The translations under genes and the position numbers were made by a program. A stretch of 63,720 bases of DNA, filler included, from Bonamia ostreae (Eukaryota): the NCBI GenBank assembly GCA_040357525.1. It is 51 parts of 51 records of this genome, joined end to end, with 100 filler letters (N's around TTAATTAATTAA, not from the genome) between each part and the next. Parts side by side here need not be neighbours in the genome. Positions count along the whole stretch, not along the records: positions 7,550 to 8,707 come from JBDODL010002498.1; 50 more parts are not named here. One strand, 5' to 3'. Numbering within the stretch: the stretch's first letter is position 1; the number at the start of each line of letters is the position of its first letter. The notes beneath the pieces were generated by a model. It was not told the DNA's origin. It saw only the letters and a list, made by a program, of their open reading frames with translations, and did not search any database. Of this stretch, positions 2,263 through 58,620 are shown piece by piece.

Positions 2263-2340
2263 ATGTCAGGTTTTGCACGTCAGCGGTTGATTGAAGAAAG
2301 AAAAGTTTTATTGCGTTTATGGAAGGCTTGGAGGAAAGAT
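2263..2340 (+). CDS. UBC9: SUMO E2 conjugating enzyme, N-terminus; 21-nt intron 2305-2325
   Basis: Spliced MSGFARQRLIEERKAWRKD matches the conserved Ubc9 N-terminus (RLxxERKAWRKDHP). Confidence 0.85.
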
Positions 2341-4390: not shown

Positions 4391-4933
4391 GTCTATTTTT
4401 GTTGATTCGAATGGCAGTCCTCTGCGATTTTTAATAATTCCCAAAAACAAAACATTCAAATTGGTAAAAGAAAACATTATCGTTTTCTTAAAATTTAGCA
4501 ATTATTAGGAAAATGGAGGGAAATTATCAAAAACTCACAAAAATTCGATAATTTTGTGCACCGATAAAAATTATCTTTTTGGACTTTCCTTAAAAGCTCG
4601 AAAAAATAAAAAATTTTATGACAAATGTTTTGTAGAAGATTGCATTAAAACGAACAAACTTTTAAAAATTGAAAATTATTTGATAAAACCATTTTCTGAA
4701 AAACCGGTTTTGGCTAAAAAGCATTCCGCAGTGGTTTTAGACACGGATTTAGCCAAAACGAAAATTGATTATAAAAAGATAAATAAGTTTGGAAATGAGA
4801 GGCAAAAACTTTTAGGGCGGAAAGTTTATGATCGAGAAGATGATTTGGGGATTATTAATTATTTGAAAGAAATGAAAGAAAAAGGAATTACAAAATTCAA
4901 AGGGAAAAATGTTTGGCTAAATTTGGCTAATTC
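4389..4933 (+). CDS. RAP1: Telomere protein RAP1 (TERF2IP), BRCT + Myb, 3'-partial; 27-nt intron 4482-4508
   Basis: MSIFVDSNGSPLRFLI..IIENGGKL..FVEDCIKTNKLLKIENYLI (BRCT) and GRKVYDREDDLGIINYLKE..GKNVW (Myb) parallel the TERF2IP domains. Confidence 0.85.
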
Positions 4934-7345: not shown

Positions 7346-7603
7346 ATCCACTGAACCACCTCTCCATAAGTGTTTTCGTTTGTTTCCCTACAAGAAATAT
7401 TTATGTTTGGTTTTCAAACTGTCATTTTTCACCACTTGCCGCGGTAGCTNNNNNNNNNNNNNNNNNNNNNNNNNNNNNNNNNNNNNNNNNNNNTTAATTA
7501 ATTAANNNNNNNNNNNNNNNNNNNNNNNNNNNNNNNNNNNNNNNNNNNNAACCCCGAAAATACAACAAACTGCAAAGTGAGCTTTAAGATTCTTATATAA
7601 AAA

Positions 7604-8666
7604 ATGTCGAAAAATGGTGAAAGCACATTTAAAATAGTAATAGCGACAGACAACCATTTGGGTTGCTACAGCAACGACGCCATTCGTTCAGACGACTCAT
7701 TTGCCACTTTCGAAGAAGTCTTGAAACAAAGCGTTGCGGAACAAGCTGATTTTCTGCTTCTCGGAGGAGACCTTTTTCATCACAACAGACCATCGCAGCC
7801 AACAGTGCACAGATGTCTTCGTTTGCTGAAAAAGTATTGTTTGGGAAGCAGAGAAGTCGGTTTTGAAGTGGTAAGTGACCAATCTTTTAATTTTGCGGAA
7901 AAGTTTGAAAATTTTCGATTTTTTAAAGGAGAGCGAATTTTGAAGACCCAAATTTGAAAATATCGCTTCCGATTTTTTCGATTCACGGCAATCATGACGA
8001 TCCGACGGGAGTAAAATTGTAAATAATAAAAGATTGAAAATTTGTCTGTGATGGACATAATGTCGACGGCGAATTTTGTGAATTATTTTGGGAAAGCGGT
8101 CGACATTTCTAAGATCAATATTAAACCTGTTTTGATGCGAAAAGGGAGAACAAAGTTTTAATTTTTTGCGACGAATTTTTGGGATTTTTTTAAATTTTGT
8201 TTTTGCGACGAATTTTTGTTCTTTTTTTTTTTAATTTTGTTTTTGCACGAATTTTTGGGATTTTTTAAATTTTGTTTTTGCGACGAATTTTTGGTCTTTT
8301 TTTTTAATTTTGTTACAAAAAAGATTGGCTGTTTATGGCTTGGGATCCATAAAAGATGAGCGTTTACATCGTCTTTTTTTGGACAGAAAAGTAAAATTTT
8401 CTCGTCCAGCGGAAGACAAAGAAGATTGGTTTAATATCTTTGTTATTCACCAAAACAGGTTTATTGATTTATTGAAACAGGTACAAGCATTCTTTCAATA
8501 GACTCAATTACATTCCAGAAAACTTTATTCCGTCTTTTATTGATCTAGTGGTTTGGGCGCACGAACACGAATCCATTATGCAACTTAACCAAAATAACGA
8601 TTTTTATGTTGTGCAGCCTGGGAGCACCACCAGAACATCTCTTTCCAAAAATGAGTTGACGGAAAA
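7604..8666 (+). CDS. MRE11: Double-strand break repair nuclease MRE11, 3'-partial; introns 7903-7928 (26 nt), 8011-8032 (22), 8155-8323 (169), 8459-8480 (22)
   Basis: Spliced motifs [39 protein letters not shown]. Confidence 0.97.
8156..8312 (+). repeat. Intronic minisatellite, ~40-nt unit x4 (TTAATTTTGTTTTTGCGACGAATTTTTG...)
   Basis: Direct tandem copies visible inside MRE11 intron 3. Confidence 0.9.
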
Positions 8667-10064
8667 GTTTTGAAGATACTTCTAAAAACAATAAAAAAAC
8701 AAAAAATNNNNNNNNNNNNNNNNNNNNNNNNNNNNNNNNNNNNNNNNNNNNTTAATTAATTAANNNNNNNNNNNNNNNNNNNNNNNNNNNNNNNNNNNNN
8801 NNNNNNNGTTAGTTAGTTAGTTAGTTAATTTGCATAATTTGCATTGCACCATTGTAAATTTCGTGAAGCATTTATGTAACAGTTGCCTTAGACATACCAC
8901 ATCTTTCTCTCTTTTTTTTTTTTTGAAATTTGTATGCAATGTTTAATTCCAGGCTGGTCGCACGTTTTGCATCTTAAGATTCCCTACCATCTTGTTGTTA
9001 CATGGATGTGTCATTGTAAAAATCATGGCATTTTTTTAACATTTAATTTCGGCAACTATAATCTGGAGCAATTTTGAGATTGACATGATGTTTCGTCTTG
9101 GTGATTTATAACGTAAAACAGCTTTACATTCAATGATATCTTTCTTCCTGTTTATCAGGAACATACATCTAATATTCATGATTTTCTAGAATCTCATTGT
9201 TGTATTTAGTTATATGACTGGAAATGAGGAAATTATTTCCGAATTTGTTTCTAATTTTACTTTTCGCTTTGTCACCGGCAGTAAATATTGATGTTTGAGC
9301 TGATATGATATCAATATTAATCCATTTAGCATCAACCATCGTTACATTATATTTTGAACCATTGTATATAAAAAAAAAAACAACTAACAAAATAGACAAA
9401 GGGACATTCACACTGTTGCAAATATAGTAAGCTTTACTCACCGTCTGAAAACGCTTCTCTTAGGGGTAAGCCTTTGTGCGAGTGAATAAAGCTGTTTATA
9501 CCCCTCATTATAATGCATCCTCACCTTTCTTTTTGTAGACCTGTAGCTCATTTGGAGAAATGGGACAAATCACAACGCTACAGATCCACTATTATGTCAA
9601 AGGGTCCGTATTTGCCTTTCTCCCAATTTTGTTATTTTGTATGCATTGTTTAAGCAGAAATAGAAAACTCCCGATTGATGTCATAGTTTTCCACTCACGA
9701 TTGATGTCTTATATCCCGAAATAATTACACCGCCCATTAAAGGCCCATGTGAACCCAATCACAGCTTCAATTTTGTATAGTGACTTAGGTATATTACATG
9801 TAGGTAGCTATTTAAGTCGAACCTCTTTGATCACTGGTACGTACCTATTCATAATTGCGAAATTATGTACGTATTCTGTTTGCCTTTATTTATAAACATT
9901 GGTGATTGATATAATAATTCTTCTGGACGTAAAATAAGTCCTTTAGTATTGAAAAAGTATTCCTNNNNNNNNNNNNNNNNNNNNNNNNNNNNNNNNNNNN
10001 NNNNNNNNTTAATTAATTAANNNNNNNNNNNNNNNNNNNNNNNNNNNNNNNNNNNNNNNNNNNN

Positions 10065-10440
10065 CTCACCAGTTCCGTAATTATAAACAGAAAATGGATC
10101 AAATTTATCAGAGATAATTTTTCGATGACGAATTTTTTTGATTTGCTTTAAGCTATTTTTGTCCAATTTTATTGTTCGATTATTCTTTTCGTCGTCGATA
10201 ACAAAACTAAATTTACTGATAAAACTTGTTATGTTTGGCCATTTTCAATTGCTTTTTGATGTCTAGTTTTTCGATTCTTCTCTCGACTTTCTTCCCTCGG
10301 ACGTTGTAACCGATGTGATTAAAATTTTTGTACCATTCAAGAGGCACTTCGCCTATTCTCGCCAACGCGCCTTCCGTTTCCGATGAATCTGATTCTGCTC
10401 TTATGACTTGTTTTTTTGTTGCTCCATCCACGGAAACCAT
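10065..10440 (-). CDS. BOP1: Ribosome biogenesis protein BOP1/Erb1, N-terminal part; 19-nt intron 10207-10225
   Basis: DSSETE..IGEVPLEWY..HIGYNVRGKK and downstream FDPF match the BOP1 N-terminal domain. Confidence 0.9.
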
Positions 10441-28886: not shown

Positions 28887-30034
28887 TATATTCGCCCGGA
28901 AGCACTCTCGCCAGCACAATTTTAAAGGTTTGTGCTTTTTTATCCGTTTTCGCAAAATTGTGCGAATACTTCGGATTTATGCTAAAGTAAGCTCCTTTTC
29001 CCAATCTCGTTGCGTTTTTGCCGTTCAGTCGAATATCAAAGCCTTGGTTCGATATTCCTTCTATCGACAAATGATCTGCTCCGTGATATAACAAATATTC
29101 GTTAAGTGATTTTTGGTTTAGCAAACTTTCTTTAATTTCCTTTTTTTGAAAAATTTTGTTTTTGACATATTTTATTTAAAAAGATGTTTTTAAATTTTAA
29201 AATAATCGTTAAATTTAAAAAAAAAACTTGTAACATTGTTTGATATTTTGTCAAAAATAGGATTGCCAAAAGTTTGTTTTGAACTCTTGTAATCGATTTT
29301 ATTCTCGAATTTGTAAAATTGTCTAAAAATTAATTTCAAGATCGCAAAAAAATCGCAAAATTGAAAAAAATTAAATTTCAAAATAAATTGCTAAATTGAA
29401 AAAAAGAAAATTTAAAAAGACGTCGAAATTTTTGGCTAATTTTTTGATGTTCTTCCGACATAAAATTTGTCTCATAAAAAGAAATGTTCGATTTTTGATA
29501 TTTCCAATTTGTTAATATCCATTCCAAAAACGATTCTTTAATCTAAAATGTTCAAAAATTACATTGTTTTCGTGTTTTTGCATAATCTCTCTTTTAATAA
29601 ATCGTTTAAATCCCGTTTTTGTGTTTTTCTGGCAAAAAAGTATTTCATTTTTTGATTTAATTGGATAAAGCTCTATTAAATAGTCCAAATTGTTTTCAAA
29701 GAAGCCTTTTGTCGGACGAAAAGCCAAAACTGAATTACCTTTAAAATAGTTTTCAATTTCTTTGCTAGCTTCCACATCAAATCGTTCCCATTTGTTTTTG
29801 TTGTCTAATTTTTTCGAATTTAGTTTTTATTTGGAAAATTTAGCTTTTGACAAATTTAGTTTTTTGACCTTTATATAACCAAACGGCATTTGCAAAACTT
29901 AAATTTTGACTATTTTCAATTTTTTTAAAAGACTCAAAAATCATTTTGTCTGTTAATCTAAAATGGCTTTCTTGTGTTAATCCAAGAAATTTAGACAATT
30001 TACTTTTTATTTTATAAAAATTTTTATCCGCCAT
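28887..30034 (-). CDS. WWE-domain + PARP catalytic domain ADP-ribosyltransferase, 3'-partial; four introns including 20-nt 29543-29562
   Basis: Spliced VWLYKDNKNKWERFDVEASKEIE..QKNTKTGFKRFIKR (WWE), then ITRVQN..LLYHG..GFD..LGKGAYF..LARVLPG (PARP). Confidence 0.9.
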
Positions 30035-32822: not shown

Positions 32823-33671
32823 ATGAGCTTTATAAGTATAAAAACAAATAATTCATCCAGAGAAAAAATACTTTTGCAAATGGAAGATTTCAAAAATATT
32901 CAAACAGTCGTTATAAAAAGTTTTGATTAAAAAATTTTTCTCGTAAAAAGCGTTCGGAATGAACATCTTTTCAAGCGAAGACAGTGTTCTCAAAGAAACA
33001 ACAAAAGTTGCTTTACGATTCTCAAACAAACACTTTTCTTCGTCAAAAGAAGTGCCTGTTCACGTTCTAAGATGCAACGACACTGAAGTATATAGAATCG
33101 ACGCAAAATTTTACACGTTCTTTACAACAATAAAAGATATCTCAAAAAAAATGGAGTCGACCAAAAAAGATCTTCATTTCATAGAAACTCTTCAAATTCA
33201 GTGAAAAGTTCAATTGAGCTTAAAAGCAATTCTTTTCTGCTCGAAATATTTAAAGTCTCTTCCAAGAAAGACAATTTATTAGAATTCTTTGGAAAATGTC
33301 GAATCGATGCAGATCGAATCGCAGATTCTGCTAATCTGTGTAAATGGTTTGAGATAACAGATAAAGAAGGTTTGAAGCAAGTCGGAAGTTTCTATCTCGG
33401 TGTTTTGACTGAAATACAAAAAGTTAAATTAACTAAAATATAAATTGTCTTAAAAATATAAATCGTCATTAAATAACAGTTCGATTTGCAATTGTTCATA
33501 GAAGTTAATGATGTTATCGATGAAATAGCAAAATATAAAAAAAGCAGTTACAAAAGAAAAAAAGTTAATTTTTTAATGTTAAGAAGCGAATGAACAATGT
33601 TTTTATAATCGATTCTTTTATCGAATATTTTATTCAAAAAACCACGGACAAAGATGAAATTATTTTTGAAG
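32823..33671 (+). CDS. Hypothetical multi-exon protein with a C2-like segment; introns 32920-32950 and 33117-33136 (20 nt)
   Basis: Removing the 20-nt GT-AG intron fuses the two track ORFs; LLEIFK..FFGKCRI..KWFEI..VGSFYL is C2-like. Confidence 0.55.
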
Positions 33672-35150: not shown

Positions 35151-36260
35151 AAAGACAAGTTCGTTCAATAATGGACCAAATAAGACCCGATCGACAAAGT
35201 TACCAAATCCAAACTTTTTAGCAATGATGTTCAGCGCCACTTTCCCGCGGGAAATACAACTTTTGGCCAACGAAAACTTGGAAAACCACATCAAAATAAT
35301 CGTCGGCCGAATCGGAGCGGTTTGACAAAATGATTTTAAGGCCAATACGAACATTCGACAAGTCGTCGAAGTGCTTTTGAACGAAGATTTGAAAATGGAA
35401 TGGCTTAAAATTCGCCTCAAAAAATTTATTGATTTCGGTCCTGTGCTCATTTTTGTGTCGAAGATAAAAGATTGCGAAGAGCTGACGAGCAAAATCAGGA
35501 AAATGAAAATTCCGTGTAAAAAATTGATTCCAAAAAATTAATTTTGAAAAGACCAAATTTTCGACCAAAATTTTCGATAATAAAAAGGCGGTTTGATTCA
35601 CGGCGATTTTGACCAACGAAAAAGAGAAGAAGTTCTGAAAAAATTTTCCACCGGAAATTGTAAATTGTTGGTCGCGACCGATGTTGCTGGTTTCGCCGAA
35701 TAAGAATTTTTACCAAAAATAAAATTTTGCTTTCATAAAAATTTGAGAAAATTAAAATTAAAAAATTAAAAATTAAAAATTTGGTAAAAAATTAAAATTT
35801 TCTTTTTCATAAAAAGCGAGAGGATTGCATATCGACAATTTAAAGACGGTCGTCAATTTTGACGCACCACGCAACTTGGAAACTCACATTAATCGGGTTG
35901 GGCGAACCGGCAGAGCAGGAAAGAACGGGATCGCTTACACTTTGTTGACCCCAAACAACAAAAAAGAAGCTTCTTTCATCAAAGCGAATTTGATCCAATC
36001 GAAACAACCGGTCAATTCGCAATTGGAAAATTTGATCAAAGACGTTTTTATTTTTGGATTAAATCGCAAAAATTAAATGTCAAATATACAATTTGAAGAA
36101 AAATGTTTCAGAAACGACAAATTTGAAGAAAGGAATGCAATTTACAAAAGAGAGCAGCAATAAAAATTTTAGGAAACGGAAAGCGGTGACATTTGAAAAA
36201 AGTAGTTTAAGCAAATCTGCTTTTTCAAAGGGATTTATAAAATCGAACGGAAATAAATAA
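35151..36260 (+). CDS. DEAD-box RNA helicase, DDX42-like, 5'-partial; five introns including 35199-35221 (23 nt) and 35320-35340 (21 nt)
   Basis: [51 protein letters not shown]. Confidence 0.88.
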
Positions 36261-36389: not shown

Positions 36390-36685
36390 GATCAAAATAT
36401 ATCAAATTTGTTTTTTAAGATCTGGAAATTCAATTTTTTATAAAAAAATAACGGAGTAAATGGTATTGCGATAGTTGCTAGCATGAGAAGAGAATGCATT
36501 TTCTCCTGAGACGCGTTTTCTTTGAGTGAATCCGACGATTGAAGGCGTTTTTCGATTGGAATAATCGTTTGTTGCGATATTTATTCCGCATTTTTTGGCG
36601 ACTCCGATGATCGAATTGTTGCTTCCAAAGTCAATTCCAGCGACTCCTACGTTCTTTATTTAAAGTAAATTTGATTTGGAACCAT
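36390..36685 (-). CDS. Hsp110/SSE-type Hsp70-family chaperone, N-terminus; ATG-only first exon, intron 36654-36682
   Basis: Spliced MNVGVAGIDFGSNNSIIGVAKKCGINIATNDYSNRKTPSIVGF; absent from the ORF track. Confidence 0.88.
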
Positions 36686-38905: not shown

Positions 38906-39802
38906 TTACTCCGCCTCGTTTCCGTTTACAGCATTCTCCTTCTCGTTTTCGCCTCCCCCGCGCCGGTTTCTCCTGCGGCCGCGGCCTCGACGCCCTCTCC
39001 CTCCTCGGAAGCGGCTGGACCCAAACAGCATCGACTTCGGCGCCGCGACTGCCATGAGAGTCTTGTCGTTCACCTTCGCGCCGTTGATGTTGGCGATCGC
39101 CTTTTCGGCCATTTTCGGGTTTTTGTAGGCGACGATGGCGTGATCCTTCGAGAACCGGAAGGAAACGACCTCCCCGTTGCCTTCTGCCTGCTTCCGGATG
39201 GATTCCTTCGGCACAGAGGCGTCATAGTTGGCGATCATCACCGCGTTTCGGAGAGGAGCGCCGGTCGACCGGAATCTCGGCGTGAATCGCTTCGGCCGAG
39301 ACTGTTCCACAACGGCCTTCTCGCCTTCGAGCTCGACTCCTTCTTCCGCGGCCTTCTCCGCGGAGGAGACATCTTCGAACTTGATGAAGGCGTAGGGCTT
39401 GTTGTCTTTCGCGGGGCTGCGCAGCAAGATGACTTCGTCGATGGTCCCATATTTCTCGAAAGCTTTGCGCAGGTTCTCCTCCGTGACTTCATCGCCGAAC
39501 TCCGCCACGTACACTTTGCGCTTGGATTCCTCCGCGCGAATCTGTCGAATCGACTTTTTGTAATCGGCGACAGTGCAGCTCTTTCCCTGCAGCTTCTGCT
39601 CGATAACAGCTTTCTCCGAGTTTTTCTTGTTTTCGTCTTCGTAGGTGAGGATGCAGAAGTTGGCGCCCTGAATGACTGCGTCTTCTTTGTAGTCGGCGAC
39701 GAGAGCCAAAAGGTCGTCTTTCGTGTCCTCGCCGAACCGGATGTAGATGCTCCTCTCCTCGCTGGGCTCTATTTTCTTGCTTTTGGTTTCGCTGTCTGAC
39801 AT
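38906..39802 (-). CDS. Multi-RRM RNA-binding protein with C-terminal RGG tail (nucleolin/Gbp2-like), intronless, GC-rich
   Basis: RNP motifs KVYVAEF..KPYAFIKF; three RRM-like units; FRGGRGRRGRGRR tail. Confidence 0.85.
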   Translation of the reverse strand: MSDSETKSKKIEPSEERSIYIRFGEDTKDDLLALVADYKEDAVIQGANFCILTYEDENKKNSEKAVIEQKLQGKSCTVADYKKSIRQIRAEESKRKVYVAEFGDEVTEENLRKAFEKYGTIDEVILLRSPAKDNKPYAFIKFEDVSSAEKAAEEGVELEGEKAVVEQSRPKRFTPRFRSTGAPLRNAVMIANYDASVPKESIRKQAEGNGEVVSFRFSKDHAIVAYKNPKMAEKAIANINGAKVNDKTLMAVAAPKSMLFGSSRFRGGRGRRGRGRRRNRRGGGENEKENAVNGNEAE

Positions 39803-40138
39803 TTCTGTCTAGTGGTATTCCGTTGCCTGTTTAGCTTATTATTTAAATTTTAGCTTTCGGTATATGGGACAGAGTTAACGAAAGTGTTTCTAAATTGGAG
39901 TTAGGTTAGCAATAAACAGTTTTTGCTTTATCTTGTTTTCACGTTTATCGGGATCGAGTAAGTTTTGGGTTTGTTCGTTCGATTTTTAACTTTCTAAATC
40001 TTGGGACTTATTATTTTTTTTTAACAATTTTGGAATTNNNNNNNNNNNNNNNNNNNNNNNNNNNNNNNNNNNNNNNNNNNNTTAATTAATTAANNNNNNN
40101 NNNNNNNNNNNNNNNNNNNNNNNNNNNNNNNNNNNNNG

Positions 40139-42715: not shown

Positions 42716-43781
42716 TTACATATTTTTGCCGTGAATATATTTGTTTGTGGCGAGGTCTTCTGGATCCTTTGGACAATTGTCTTTTAGCAATATCACTCCA
42801 AATCCCTTTTACGTTAAAATTGATGATTTACCTTTTTGATTGTGCGATAACGTTGTTGTACAAACTCACCGACTTCTTTTCTCTGTTTTATAGTGATTCG
42901 ACACGGATTCTTTAGAACGCAATTTTTCAACGCCTTCTCCACTTTTAGCGCTGTTTCTTCTTCTTTCGACTTCTCTTTTTCATCCTTTTTGTCTGCGCTC
43001 GCTATTCCATTCTTTTTCATCGCTTCTTCGCGAGTAGAAGAAACAGCGTCAGTAGACGGCTTGGCATTAGATGAAGACGCAGTCGTCTCTTCGCCAGTAG
43101 AAGAAACAGCGCCGGGAGACGGCACTGCTTTAGAAGACGCGACAGTGTCATCGCCGAGTTTTTTCGTAGAAGCGATGGCCGAACTCTTTTGGAGAAGACC
43201 CGATTTCTTGTTTTTGCTTCTCCTCCTGTAGCGCTCCAATTTGCTCTTCTCCGAAATCGATAATGTCACCTCTGAAGCTTCCGTCTTCTTCTTCTCTTCT
43301 TCCAACTTGAATTCCGGGAACTCGTAATTTTGCGCGTTTCGGCAAAACAAACGGAAATGTTTTGGCATTTTAAGTGCGCTCGTTATTCCTATAAAAGCTG
43401 TCGGTTTTACCGCCAAAGACAGAAAGTGGTTGAAAGGATACCAATGCCACGATTGCATAAACAGCAAAACGCCAGCTACCGCCACCGGTCTTATTATGTT
43501 TCCGTTGTCGCCGCCGAAGAGACTTTTGTGGCCGTTGTCGGAGAGCATGGACACAGTGCAGTTGTTCCCTCCGAGAGTGAGGAGGCCCATGGAAAGGATG
43601 GCGCCGGATTTGGAGAAGGAAGGGAAGTCCCCGGAGGAAGTGTTTTTGATGTATTTGGAGATTTCTTGGATGTGTTCTTCGACGCGAGATTTTTGAGAAG
43701 AAGTGGTTTGGGCGAAGACGAGGGATTTTGCCATAAGAGCGGCGTTTCGGACGAAATCGATTTTGTCTTTTGTGAGCAGAG
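42716..43781 (-). CDS. RPN2: 26S proteasome regulatory subunit RPN2/PSMD1, C-terminal part; 26-nt intron 42806-42831
   Basis: GAILSMGLLTLGGNNCTV..AVAGVLLFMQSWHWYPFNHFLSLA..LKNPCR..GVILLKD. Confidence 0.94.
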
Positions 43782-47623: not shown

Positions 47624-48669
47624 ACAAAAAATTAAGAAAACATCAGATTTTGAGATTATTGGAAGCAAATTCCAAAGCAAAAAATATTTTTAAACTTATA
47701 AAAAATAAAATTTATATTTCGCACGAAGGACTTATTTTAGATTATGAAAATGCTTTGAGCTCTAAGATGAAAAATAACTTTTATAATCGATCTGCTCATT
47801 TTCTCTGGATTGGTGACAGAACTAGAAATTTGTTAAAAATTTTTCAAAAATAATTAAAATTGCTAAAAATTTGAAATGGAAAAAATGATTAAAATCGTTA
47901 AAAATTTGAAATGGAAAAAATGATTAAAATTGTTAAAAATTGTAAATTGATTAAAATTTAACAAAAATTTAAAAATGGCTAAAACGACAAAAATTTGCAA
48001 AAATGACTAAAATTTGTTAAAAATAGAAAAAGTGCGCACATCGATTATTTTAAAAATATTGAAAATCCTTTGGGAATCAAAATAGGACCTGTTTAATTGA
48101 AATAATATTTTAAAAAAAGAATCACGATTCAAATGAAATTGTCCAAATTTGCAAAATTTTAAATCCAAAAAATGTTTTCGGCAAAATTGTTTTAATAACA
48201 AGGTCTAATTTGTTATTAAAAATTAGATTTTTTATAAATTCAACGATCGAACATTAAAATTTAGTCGCAAATTCTTAAATTTTTAAAAAGGTTGTCTTCT
48301 GAAAAAGTAACAAGATTATTGCCTAATCTCGTAAGAGCGATAAAACAAAACAAATTAGAAGTGATTTGGCAATGCGACCCAATGCACGGGAACACAACAA
48401 AGTATAAAAATATAAAAACGCGATATTTGTCAAAAATTAAAGAAGAGATTTTAAAAACTGTCCAAATTTTAGCCAAATTTTCAATTTTGTTAATGGGTTT
48501 GCATTTGGAAATGACTTATGAAAACGTTTTTGAGTGTGTTAGCGAATTGGATTCTGTTGAAAAATTGGGGAGAAATTATAGATCGCTTTGCGATCCGAGG
48601 CTAAATTTTAACCAAGCTAAACAAATTGTGTCGTTTTACGGCGATGCTGTAAATAAATATTTTAAATAA
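47624..48669 (+). CDS. Class II DAHP synthase (shikimate pathway, first step), 5'-partial; introns 47832-48026, 48091-48119, 48203-48290
   Basis: SHEGLILDYE..SAHFLWIGDRTR..NPLGIKIGP..WQCDPMHGNT..GLHLEMT..YRSLCDPRLN are AroA-II signatures. Confidence 0.95.
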
Positions 48670-50117: not shown

Positions 50118-50793
50118 AATTTTCCCCCTGTTCCAGAGCTTTGCGAATTGATAATATACCAGATGGTGTAAAACAATTTATCTCAAACAATGCTCGCACT
50201 TTCCTTTTCTTTTTAGTCAATCTATGACTTACATTTTCTATTAGAGAATTTTTTATTTCGTTAGGAACATCATATTTTTCTAAAAATTCTTTAGGATAAC
50301 TTAATATTTTTAAAATTAACGTGTTAAGATAGTCAAGTCCGTCTATAGCGTGAGGGAAATCATCATATAACTGCCAACCAAATGACTTGTATGTTTCCTC
50401 TATGGAAAAATTGCATTTTACACAAACTTGCCTAAAAATTGAATGTACCTTTCTACTGTTTTTATATCTTTCCAAAAATCGGGACCTTTCTGTGGGAGGA
50501 ACTCGTTTTTTGCTTAAGTCAACATATCCTTTTTCTCTATCAACTCTCATAACCATAACAATTTCTTGACGATGAACCTGAACCATTTTACTAACTGTTC
50601 TCCATCGTCTTTTCGACAACTCGCTATGCATCATTAGTCCTTCTAGATTTTGATACTCAAGTAGAGATAAGTAAACACCTGTATCCTCTATTCTTGTAAC
50701 TTTAGCCATAACCAAATCATCTATTTTTGGGTATTCGTTCCTGTACATTCTAAATTCTGGCAGTTTTACGGAATTTTTTTTGTTTTTCTTCAT
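50118..50793 (-). CDS. EIF2S1: Translation initiation factor 2 alpha, 3'-partial; 21-nt intron 50300-50320
   Basis: RMYRNEYPKIDDLVM..LLEYQNLEG..SELSKRR..RVDREKGYVDLSKKRV. Confidence 0.97.
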
Positions 50794-55102: not shown

Positions 55103-56129
55103 GAGAAAAATTGATCTTAAAAAACCAGAATAAAATGGATCAAAAAGAGCCTTAAAATATTTCATAACCGAATTTTCTTTCAAACCGTTCTCCATATATT
55201 CTTCCAAAAGTCCGCTTTCCAACAAAGCTTCGGAGTTGTCTGCTACAAAACCGGCCAAATATTTTTTTATTCGGGCAGAGCGATATCTGGAAGGCTGAGT
55301 AAGCCCATCTTTCATTTCATCCGATTCGTCCTCTCCTTTCACATTCGAAAGCACATGTAACTGGTATCCGAGAGCGTTAAAAAGAGTGTTCGATCGCTCA
55401 TTTCGCTCCATTCGGATTATTTCAATATTCCTGTAGACCGTTTTGTTGACTTCTGGACTCACTCCTTTCCACTCTTTTCGCAAAGAAGCGTTCCAAGAAT
55501 CTCTATCGAACCTTTCCGGTTTTGGCGATTTTGGGAATTTTTGCAGAACAGCGCGAATTCTTTCAACGACGATGTATTGGCCGGTCAAAAACAGCGGAAA
55601 CATTACTTCATTTTCCTCCAAATCGACAAACTGATTTTTTATAAAATTTGGAACATTCAATTTTACATTTTCCGTGATAGTACTTTGTACATCATTTGCA
55701 ACAAAAACGTGTGGGATGTGGTCTCTATACGCGCTTCTGTTGAATGGATCGTAATTCTTCGTCATAAATTCTTCATATTGAGTCTGATCCCACAATCTGA
55801 ACTGATTGACTGGCCATCGCAACGCAATCGAGACTTTCTCTTTCATTTCCAAAAACGTGATTCCTTTGTTCAATCCTTTCAATTGCAGCAACTCTCCTCC
55901 GTAAGGCGGGTCTTTTTTAATGGCGTCAAAAATAGAACATGATGGTTGCTTTTTAGAGTGATCTTTGCCACGAGCGTCAATGACGACCATCGTCAATTCG
56001 GCGAGATCAAGTTCCTAAAAATTTACTTAAAACTTGATAAATGTCTTTCAATGACTCGTCTTCATCGTCCTTTTCGGGGAAGTCGTTAACGATGACGGTG
56101 TGAGGATAAGATTTGTTTTTTGCCGGCAT
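55103..56129 (-). CDS. Hypothetical protein with a degenerate OTU-like segment, 3'-partial; 19-nt intron 56015-56033
   Basis: Spliced MPAKNKSYP..DIYQELDLAELTMVV..; ERSNTLFNALGYQL resembles OTU DGNCLFRALxxQL. Confidence 0.6.
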
Positions 56130-57594: not shown

Positions 57595-58620
57595 CCGTCA
57601 AAATTTGAGAAAGACGAATTGCGATTTGAACATAAACTTTCAAAATCCGACAATATTGGAAAAGTGTTGCTGATCGAAGAAGTTTTTAAAATTTGAAAAT
57701 TTTTGTAAAATCAAATTTCCAAATTTGAAGATCTGCAAAATTGACGCAAAAATGTCCAAAACGTTCAAAAACAACAAAGAACTGCTGAAATCCGGAAACC
57801 TTGAAAAATTTTTACAAATCTTTGACGAAAAAACCGATTTTTTGGTGACCAAAAAAATTAATTCGATTTATAACGAGTTTTTATAAAAACGGCCAATTTT
57901 CGCAAATTTTAATTTTGAGTGATCAATTTTAATCCGATTTTGCGATTAAAAATAAAATTTTAAAAAGACTCAAATTTGAAACTTCCAATTTGTGGGAAAA
58001 CAGATGCGCTAACACTAAATGCCTCAAAACTTCAAAATTCCAATCGTTTTGCGATAAATGTGGAAATGCCCAAACATTACAGAAAATAAAGTCCGAACAA
58101 AAAGAAATCGGCTTAAATTTTAATTTCTCTCAAAATGAGAAAATAAAAATGATTGAAAAATCATTTGACATAATTCTGGAAATGACTCGAAAACAGAAAA
58201 GCAAAAACAAAATCCGCAGAAATGGCGGCGACATTGTATTTTTATTGCGCAACGTGTTGATAAACGCTTCCGCCAAAATCAAAGTTTTCTAAAATAAAAA
58301 TCAGAAAACGACCAAATTGGCATTCGACGAAATAATGAAAAAAATTCGAAAAGTGACCAAATTGCACGACAACTCAAATCCTTCGGTAATCAAAACATAA
58401 CTTAAATTTTGGCTAAATTTTAAAAATATCAAAAATTAAAAATTTTTATTTACAAAAAGGAACTTTTGGTTAATTTGGAAATGATTCACGCGATGAGCAG
58501 TGTAGGAGACGAAAATGTTGGAGAATTGAAGGAACAAATAAAAAGATCGCTTGCGAAAACAAGAGGATCTGTGATCGTCTTTTCTTCGATCAAAAATAAC
58601 GTCCCGCCGTTCATTTCTGT
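57595..58620 (+). CDS. Multi-exon hypothetical protein with a CxxxxC..CxxC motif; introns include 57682-57730 and 58284-58304
   Basis: GT-AG splicing restores a continuous frame; CANTKC..FCDKC is a putative zinc site. Confidence 0.55.

Follow-up and report, generated by a model that had tools for sequence, protein, structure and literature searches.

The contig at positions 7550–8707 of the window (the whole 63,720-nt stretch of Bonamia ostreae DNA analyzed here) carries the 5′ part of an MRE11 gene, which spans positions 7604–8673 on the plus strand according to the gene model and is interrupted by four introns. The encoded fragment is 100% identical to the NCBI Bonamia ostreae protein P0001, and its remaining named matches are MRE11-type proteins. 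P0001 is misnamed by NCBI as 'Dynein heavy chain 3, axonemal'. The first intron (7903–7928, plus strand, 26 nt) has a GTTT donor and an AAG acceptor, and the second (8011–8032, plus strand, 22 nt) belongs to the minority GTAA class. Both are spliced in P0001; the first is part of the best form against the MRE11 profile, and retention of the second shortens the protein. The third intron (8155–8323, plus strand, 169 nt, GTTT donor), which the initial annotation did not list, comes from the gene model and contains a tandem repeat (8158–8310); similar AT-rich stretches occur on other contigs. The fourth (8459–8480, plus strand, 22 nt) is absent from the public annotation, as P0001 runs through it and then stops. 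On an MRE11 profile built from 60 homologues, the form with the 7903, 8011, and 8459 introns spliced scores 418.0 bits, the best of 14 splice forms, compared with 351.9 bits for the form that keeps 8459. The closest rival, with a 29-nt version of the 7903 intron, scores ~2 bits lower (415.8 bits).

The window is composed of 51 contigs of ~1.15 kb each, joined by N runs that flank a linker with stops in every frame, and taken from a mixed assembly that is fragmentary (10.3 Mb, 7503 contigs). Parasite-like composition (CpG observed/expected >1.3, TA observed/expected <0.6) is found in 21 of the 51 contigs, and most of the others have the appearance of host or other DNA. An Rfam search of the whole window gave no match. 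The initial annotation had listed 16 ultra-short spliceosomal introns in the window, and all 16 segments run from GT to AG where it had placed them and at the lengths it had assigned, six of them on the minus strand; 15 of the 16 sit on the 21 contigs with parasite-like composition. Nine have support from homology or a profile, five from reading frame or gene model only, and two are in-frame, stop-free 21-nt candidates. Our gene finder recovered five of the 16 exactly.

Several of these introns interrupt recognizable genes. In a BRCT/Myb (RAP1-like) gene, the intron is 27 nt long (4482–4508, plus strand), and a 17-nt form of it hits a stop after 22 codons; the exon downstream matches Pfam BRCT_2 positions 29–85, and Myb_Rap1 only at E 0.21. 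The exons flanking a 19-nt intron (10207–10225, minus strand) match Pfam BOP1NT positions 1–31 and then 41–79. A helicase-like gene, presumably of the DEAD-box type, has two introns on the plus strand. The first (35199–35221, 23 nt) leaves a single open frame once the second is also removed, and the second (35320–35340, 21 nt) contains an in-frame stop and is supported by model and frame. A 29-nt intron directly after the start codon of an HSP70-family gene (36654–36682, minus strand) places the ATG just ahead of the start of the HSP70 profile. Another 29-nt intron (48091–48119, plus strand) separates exons that match Pfam DAHP_synth_2 positions 268–290 and then 293–320. Positions 48007–48254 hold an intron-bearing B. 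ostreae gene for a class II DAHP synthase, of the shikimate pathway.

The other listed segments are candidates. A 19-nt candidate (56015–56033, minus strand) is supported by model and frame only. Frame only supports a GTAA-class candidate of 26 nt lying 3′ of an RPN2_C exon (42806–42831, minus strand), a GTAA-class candidate of 20 nt (29543–29562, minus strand), and a further 20-nt candidate (33117–33136, plus strand). For a 21-nt candidate at 58284–58304 (plus strand), the gene model agrees on the donor and prefers a later acceptor. The two in-frame, stop-free candidates of 21 nt lie at 2305–2325 (plus strand), between short exons without a Pfam or PDB match, and at 50300–50320 (minus strand), in an eIF2-alpha gene. 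Left unspliced, the eIF2-alpha frame is seven residues longer than one homologue and one residue longer than another. Its contig lacks parasite-like composition and may not be from the parasite.

The donors of the 16 introns read GTTT in nine cases, GTAA in three, GTTC in two, and GTTA in two, and none reads GTAAG. The claim that donors are mostly GTTT rather than GTAAG is borne out, as GTT also begins 174 of 206 short introns (18–30 nt) in an unbiased genome-wide set described below. The acceptors are AAG (nine), TAG (five), and CAG (two), with AAAAG in 4/16 and TAAAG in 2/16. GT..AG ends alone are weak proof of an intron, because 435 of the 1160 GTs (37.5%) on 13 parasite-like contigs of the window have an AG 19–29 nt downstream; 48% of the GTs with such an AG read GTT.

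For genome-wide statistics, we sampled contigs C1–C60 (573 kb), on which the gene finder was trained, and 86 searched-out loci (179 kb, overlaps included) of the 10.3-Mb assembly. In its first pass, run with uniform lengths and without splice matrices, the gene finder called 353 introns, three of 18 nt, 28 of 19 nt, and 43 of 20 nt, with GTTT donors in 182. An unbiased set was then drawn from C1–C60 and the 86 loci without matrices for donors or acceptors and with a flat prior on length; it comprises 337 introns whose two exons each reach 40 nt or more. Lengths of 13, 14, 15, 16, 17, and 18 nt occur 7, 5, 1, 6, 7, and 5 times, respectively, 19 nt occurs 38 times, and 20 nt 58 times. The 31 introns shorter than 19 nt are evenly spread, 152 fall at 19–23 nt, and 80 exceed 40 nt. 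The length histogram therefore steps sharply at 19 nt without a length prior, in agreement with the floor near 19 nt proposed in the initial annotation. A motif-distance test without gene models gave a slight bump at 19–20 nt and no overall excess at 18–30 nt.

The initial annotation had based this floor on an AG skipped 17 nt into the RAP1-like intron. The skipping is real there, but it is no evidence for a floor, as skipped AGs are equally frequent at 19–30 nt (40/1592) and at 10–18 nt (60/2620). The 19-nt floor rests on the length histogram instead. A 'first AG beyond 19 nt' rule is present in the trained model and absent from the unbiased one, and was dropped as evidence. Nor are these introns the smallest known: shorter ones are described in Mikrocytos (16–17 nt) and heterotrich ciliates (15–16 nt), and those of the nucleomorph measure 18–21 nt (PMC10245619). 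Their length distribution is not the narrowest known either, with 80 of 337 predicted to exceed 40 nt.

A 2084-nt contig of run X1, a run presumed to be RNA-derived, aligns to contig C16 with gaps of 21, 19, 24, 21, and 23 nt, and all five gaps are GT–AG. Four of them coincide with introns predicted beforehand, and, among the records listed, these four are the only ones bridged of the 23 introns predicted on C16. The fifth gap (G000:C16 3273–3293) is a 21-nt intron, GTTT..AAG, that runs antisense to the genes on either side, where no gene is predicted. Homology continuity, RNA-like gaps at predicted places, and the 19-nt step together indicate real spliceosomal introns, and the observation of ultra-short GT..AG introns is confirmed.

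Most donors begin with GTT, and a smaller class reads GTAA. When the short introns of the unbiased set are counted, A at +3 is followed by A at +4 in 16 of 18, and T at +3 is followed by A at +4 in 14 of 174. The linkage of +3A and +4A exceeds the dinucleotide background of 0.543 (p 0.002), so dinucleotide bias explains part of it, not all. In the GTT donors, +4 is T in 118 of 174 (background 0.38), +5T (76/174, p 0.14) is not significant, and +6G is marginal (p 0.054 with context). G at +5 is found in only 1/16 of the GTAA class, though a canonical U1 should favour it, and in 16/174 of the GTT donors. T at +6 looked like a mark of the GTAA class in the trained set (21/32), was not reproduced in the unbiased set (7/16 versus 54/174), and was rejected. 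GTAA and GTTT introns coexist in single genes, namely MRE11 and the RNA-bridged gene on C16.

Two U1 genes accompany these two donor classes. The variant U1 (G000:C1288) matches the Rfam U1 family (RF00003) over model positions 1–166 with 47.4 bits and an E-value of 2.7e-10. This is below the Rfam gathering score of 69.5, as the changed 5′ arm costs score. It has helix H, stem-loops SL1–SL3 with U1-70K-type and U1A-type loops, the Sm site, and SL4, and its centroid fold has four stems (z −1.94). Its arm reads AAAAC instead of ACUUAC in the same register, making it the complement of GUUUU. In the register of the Rfam consensus, the pairing C is kept four bases ahead of helix H and the preceding bases are AAAA. 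The second U1 (G000:C414) has the canonical arm ACUUAC (arm region ACUUACCUG) and both protein-binding loops, those of SL1 and SL2. It scores 23.5 bits (E 0.023), its contig ends within SL3, and its partial fold is no better than shuffles. It also carries a small extra hairpin in the 5′ strand of SL1, and its U1-70K-type loop is unlike that of the variant. The two U1s diverge by ~27%. A loop-pattern search of the assembly for a third U1 gave these two and one unstructured match only.

The same 12-base upstream element precedes both U1 genes and the U3, U4, and U5 genes, with a TATA-like box 29–33 nt on. The assembly contains 13 exact copies of the element, five of them ahead of snRNA or snoRNA genes, and none of the reversed control. 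The A run of the variant U1 begins 60 nt from the element and the U4 start lies at 59 nt; by this spacing, the A run should lie inside the variant RNA, whose mature 5′ end is placed by inference. One further copy of the element (G000:C2018 1312–1323, minus strand) stands with a TATA-like box at the usual spacing before a short AT-rich inverted repeat without an Rfam match. The initial annotation had predicted altered U1 pairing. A variant U1 gene does exist, but a canonical one is present as well, indicating that U1 was duplicated rather than replaced.

U4 (94.4 bits) and U5 (68.2 bits) are both conserved. For U5 (G000:C1871, upstream of position 335, minus strand), promoter spacing implies that the RNA starts ~31 nt ahead of the Rfam start, on an additional 5′ hairpin, and loop 1 has the canonical form. 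A U2 candidate (G000:C951 368–514, minus strand) is weak (21 bits) and has no upstream element within 150 nt. It is the assembly's only exact U2 branch-pairing core, with two extra bases before the core and an enlarged first loop. For U6, the family search of this incomplete assembly gave three weak matches, two of which resemble related coding sequence, and neither three motif searches (one derived from the U4 complement) nor two promoter-element searches, with 30 of 40 one-mismatch places inspected, found a gene. U11 (RF00548) has no match at E 1 in the incomplete assembly, and the gene finder allowed GT–AG introns only. Genes for U1-70K, U1C, LUC7, and a METTL16-family protein are present, and U1C looks conserved. 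An RRM protein encoded in the window (38909–39808) was considered as a U1 protein and rejected, as its best PDB matches say otherwise. A metagenome scan for U1s with an AAAC arm returned 92 stretches; the four checked by Rfam were two animal-type U1s, one non-match, and one other variant U1, and no relative of Bonamia was recognized. The other variant (Ga0210315_1009706 374–536) is a eukaryotic U1 (52.9 bits) with GCAAAC at the pairing site.

At the 3′ end of the introns, A is found at −8 in 119 and at −7 in 108 of the 206 short introns, likely representing a degenerate branch point. With a branch A 7–8 nt from the end, four or five bases before the AG, a short intron has no room for a pyrimidine tract. 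The long introns show no T rise ahead of the AG. The reported lack of a polypyrimidine tract is supported. The GTRAG donor and pyrimidine tract that are typical of U2-type introns, though not obligatory in them, are not found here. The base at −3 is A in 50, T in 35, C in 24, and G in two of 111 unambiguous short introns. This is indistinguishable from interior NAG (p 0.58) except for G (p 0.0004). The long introns lean to A (46/80 at −3, 43/80 at −4). The acceptors had been described as A-rich; this reflects mostly base composition and the branch-like A at −8/−7, and only G is excluded at −3. The actual feature of the acceptor is the lack of a YAG preference together with the exclusion of G.

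U2AF35, which the initial annotation did not name, is the best candidate for the cause of the −3 pattern. An orthologue of this protein, whose family is characterized by ZF1–UHM–ZF2 with Ser34, was identified by best PDB matches (E 7e-33) and is split over contigs C6198 and C1098. Zinc finger 1 of U2AF35, found once in the assembly, has Leu at the position of Ser34 of fission-yeast U2AF23 (Tyr in the mutant structure). Among 150 relatives, one of which looks like another zinc-finger protein, this position is Ser in 133, Thr in eight, another residue in nine, and Leu in none. The Leu34 codon is two changes away from the nearest Ser codon. The S34F/Y proteins are reported to show 'little discrimination ... 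except for rejecting guanosine' at −3 (PMC7505975). By analogy, Leu34 may be linked to the −3 pattern seen here, though the stacking described for Tyr34 and Phe34 need not apply, as Leu is not aromatic.

There are two U2AF65 genes. One (C938; our model is identical to NCBI's) encodes an RS region, RRM1, a linker, and a UHM, with no RRM2. The other (C5771) encodes RRM2 and a UHM, and its 5′ part is off the contig. No second RRM1 for U2AF65 was found in the assembly, and the C5771 fragment retrieved no homologue at E 1e-15. The suggestion of an altered U2AF65 is supported by the paralogue that lacks RRM2, but the second gene keeps this domain. P0123, possibly from another haplosporidian, is 63% identical to the RRM2-less U2AF65. 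An SF1 match on C2601 was not relied upon, as that contig lacks parasite-like composition.

Taken together, these are probably major-spliceosome GT–AG introns that have shrunk to a floor of ~19 nt and are read by a modified recognition set that includes two U1s and a Leu34 U2AF35. The interpretation offered in the initial annotation is partly supported. The chemistry would be the standard two steps, acting on introns near the smallest span that a spliceosome can hold. After U1 duplication, the variant would pair with GUUU(U) donors, ~85–90% of introns, and the canonical ACUUAC copy would serve the GUAA minority, ~7–9%. The branch site and AG would be read together by SF1/U2AF with little input from a tract, U2AF35 with Leu34 would accept A, U, or C at −3 and reject G, and the loss of RRM2 in one U2AF65 paralogue would fit relaxed tract reading. 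The intron features and the genes with their sequences are shown directly, whereas we infer from sequence that both U1s are expressed, where their mature 5′ ends lie, how they divide the work, where the branch point sits, and what Leu34 and the missing RRM2 do. More tentatively, this could be a split major spliceosome, in which two U1 snRNPs descended from an old duplication would each serve one donor class, with about nine in ten introns taken over by the new arm; U2AF35, in its wild-type form, would mimic the Ser34 change of human cancer, and the two U2AF65 proteins would have lost part of their tract reading.

The fit of the two arms to the donors is consistent with this division. In the trained set, the variant arm pairs better with 312 of 429 GTT donors and the canonical arm with 65, and the canonical arm pairs better with 30 of 32 GTA donors. 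The held-out loci contain only one short GTA donor, too few for a repeat of the +3/+4 linkage test. The exon base at −1 is T in only 70 of the 429 GTT donors, although the variant arm would favour U there. A different reading, which we consider unlikely, is that the canonical U1 reads all introns, with GUU tolerated through exon-side pairing, U-rich binders (U1C, LUC7, or TIA-1 type), or U6, and that the variant is a pseudogene or has another job. As this reading predicts, an exon −1 G goes with fewer T at +5 (56/143 versus 155/286, p 0.004). The U1C, LUC7, and U1-70K genes are present, with U1C looking conserved, and several lineages altered their donors without altering U1 (bioRxiv 10.1101/2022.06.08.495308; PMC10581693). 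However, at ~27% divergence the variant still has the promoter element, the TATA-like box, every stem, and the Sm site, and its changed bases complement the dominant donor.

It is less likely still that the variant U1 works for all introns and the canonical copy is a remnant, the GTAA 'class' arising from AA bias or from an effect of U6 m6A and METTL16 on +4. The background probability of A after TA is already 0.54, the GTAA class lacks +5G, and its +6T is not reproduced; a METTL16-family gene is present, and METTL16 has been tied to the choice of A or U at +4 (PMC10581693). Against this, 16/18 is still above background (p 0.002), and the canonical copy has lost neither its promoter element nor its two protein-binding loops, and its arm is intact.

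The presence of only 21 parasite-like contigs among the 51, in an assembly fragmented into 7503 contigs, raises the prospect that the two U1 genes, and the two U2AF65 genes, come from two organisms, such as a co-infecting relative, with one U1 each. We judge this very improbable, as the two U1 contigs are alike in composition and share an identical promoter element; U3, U4, U5, U1-70K, and the U2AF35 zinc finger are each found once in the assembly; and single genes (MRE11, C16 gene) contain both GTAA and GTTT introns. Finally, that the short segments are artefacts of frameshifts or assembly, or coding sequence that is retained, as the two in-frame stop-free candidates of 16 and the retention of 8459 in the NCBI model might suggest, is hardly credible given the RNA-like gaps at predicted places, the profile continuity, and the sharp 19-nt step without a prior.

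The published genome paper credits B. ostreae with 'canonical introns' (PMC11069148). The term 'snRNA' does not occur in its main text, nor 'intron' in the four supplement files that were text-searched, and its supplement file 1 places OG0001317 (GO 'U1 snRNA binding') among the gene-cluster gains of B. ostreae, not significant after correction (PMC11069148). A literature search, with subscription journals largely outside its reach, returned nothing on Bonamia splice signals, U1 genes, or a natural Ser34 change. What is new here is the two U1 genes and the splicing machinery of Bonamia beside GTT(T) donors. The gene models of this parasite need redoing, since its introns have been called canonical (PMC11069148) and the public annotation misses some of them, such as 8459. 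The lack of U1 change despite altered donors in other lineages has been termed a mystery, in a preprint that gives a matching U1 only for Entamoeba and Mastigamoeba (bioRxiv 10.1101/2022.06.08.495308). A genome with both an old U1 and a new one, and with two donor classes, offers a route to donor rewriting, namely duplication followed by takeover. If true, the split spliceosome would be a living intermediate, in which the donor consensus has been rewritten and the old introns kept. A natural Leu at position 34 of U2AF35 would likewise let a cancer hot spot be studied across a whole genome as a natural experiment.

One of the closest known systems is that of Entamoeba, where GUUUGU(U) donors go with a co-evolved U1 whose arm reads ACAAAC (bioRxiv 10.1101/2022.06.08.495308). 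Both systems have U at donor positions +3 and +4 and a U1 arm changed to the complement, and the candidate branch point of Bonamia, like the branch point of Entamoeba (−8 in E. invadens), lies near the AG. In Entamoeba, each species has a single U1 candidate, donors are strict (~88% GUUUGU), introns are few, and U1C has diverged, whereas Bonamia has two U1s, a loose donor without +5G or +6U, many introns per gene, a length mode of 19–20 nt, and a conserved-looking U1C. The likeness is convergent, as the two belong to different supergroups. The genome of the diplonemid Sulcionema specki, like that of Bonamia, has a canonical U1 gene and an alternative one (PMC12621601). Its two U1s have comparable complementarity to a canonical logo, and the alternative one has a C run (PMC12621601). 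In Bonamia, by contrast, the two arms match different donor classes, with the variant matching the larger one.

Very short GT–AG introns with a hard lower limit are shared with the mikrocytids, members of the same group (Ascetosporea), and with the nucleomorph (PMC10245619). Mikrocytids have few introns (224), which are uniform and conserved, and of their snRNAs U2, U4, and U6 alone are identified (PMC10245619). The U2AF35 change resembles the U2AF1 S34F/Y of cancer, in which the same residue becomes large and hydrophobic and the same −3 pattern is seen (PMC7505975). Unlike in cancer, the residue in Bonamia is Leu, in apparently the sole copy of the gene and as the organism's normal state, and its effect is predicted. 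Compared with the mikrocytids, Bonamia has many introns, a long tail of lengths, and degenerate intron sequences, and it keeps U1, U4, U5, U1-70K, U1C, LUC7, and both U2AF subunits. The division between U2-type and U12-type introns, in which U1 and U11 are two 5′-site-reading snRNAs for two intron classes, is a further parallel. Unlike U1 and U11, however, both Bonamia RNAs are U1 by their loops and by Rfam, and there is no sign of a separate U2, U4, or branch site.
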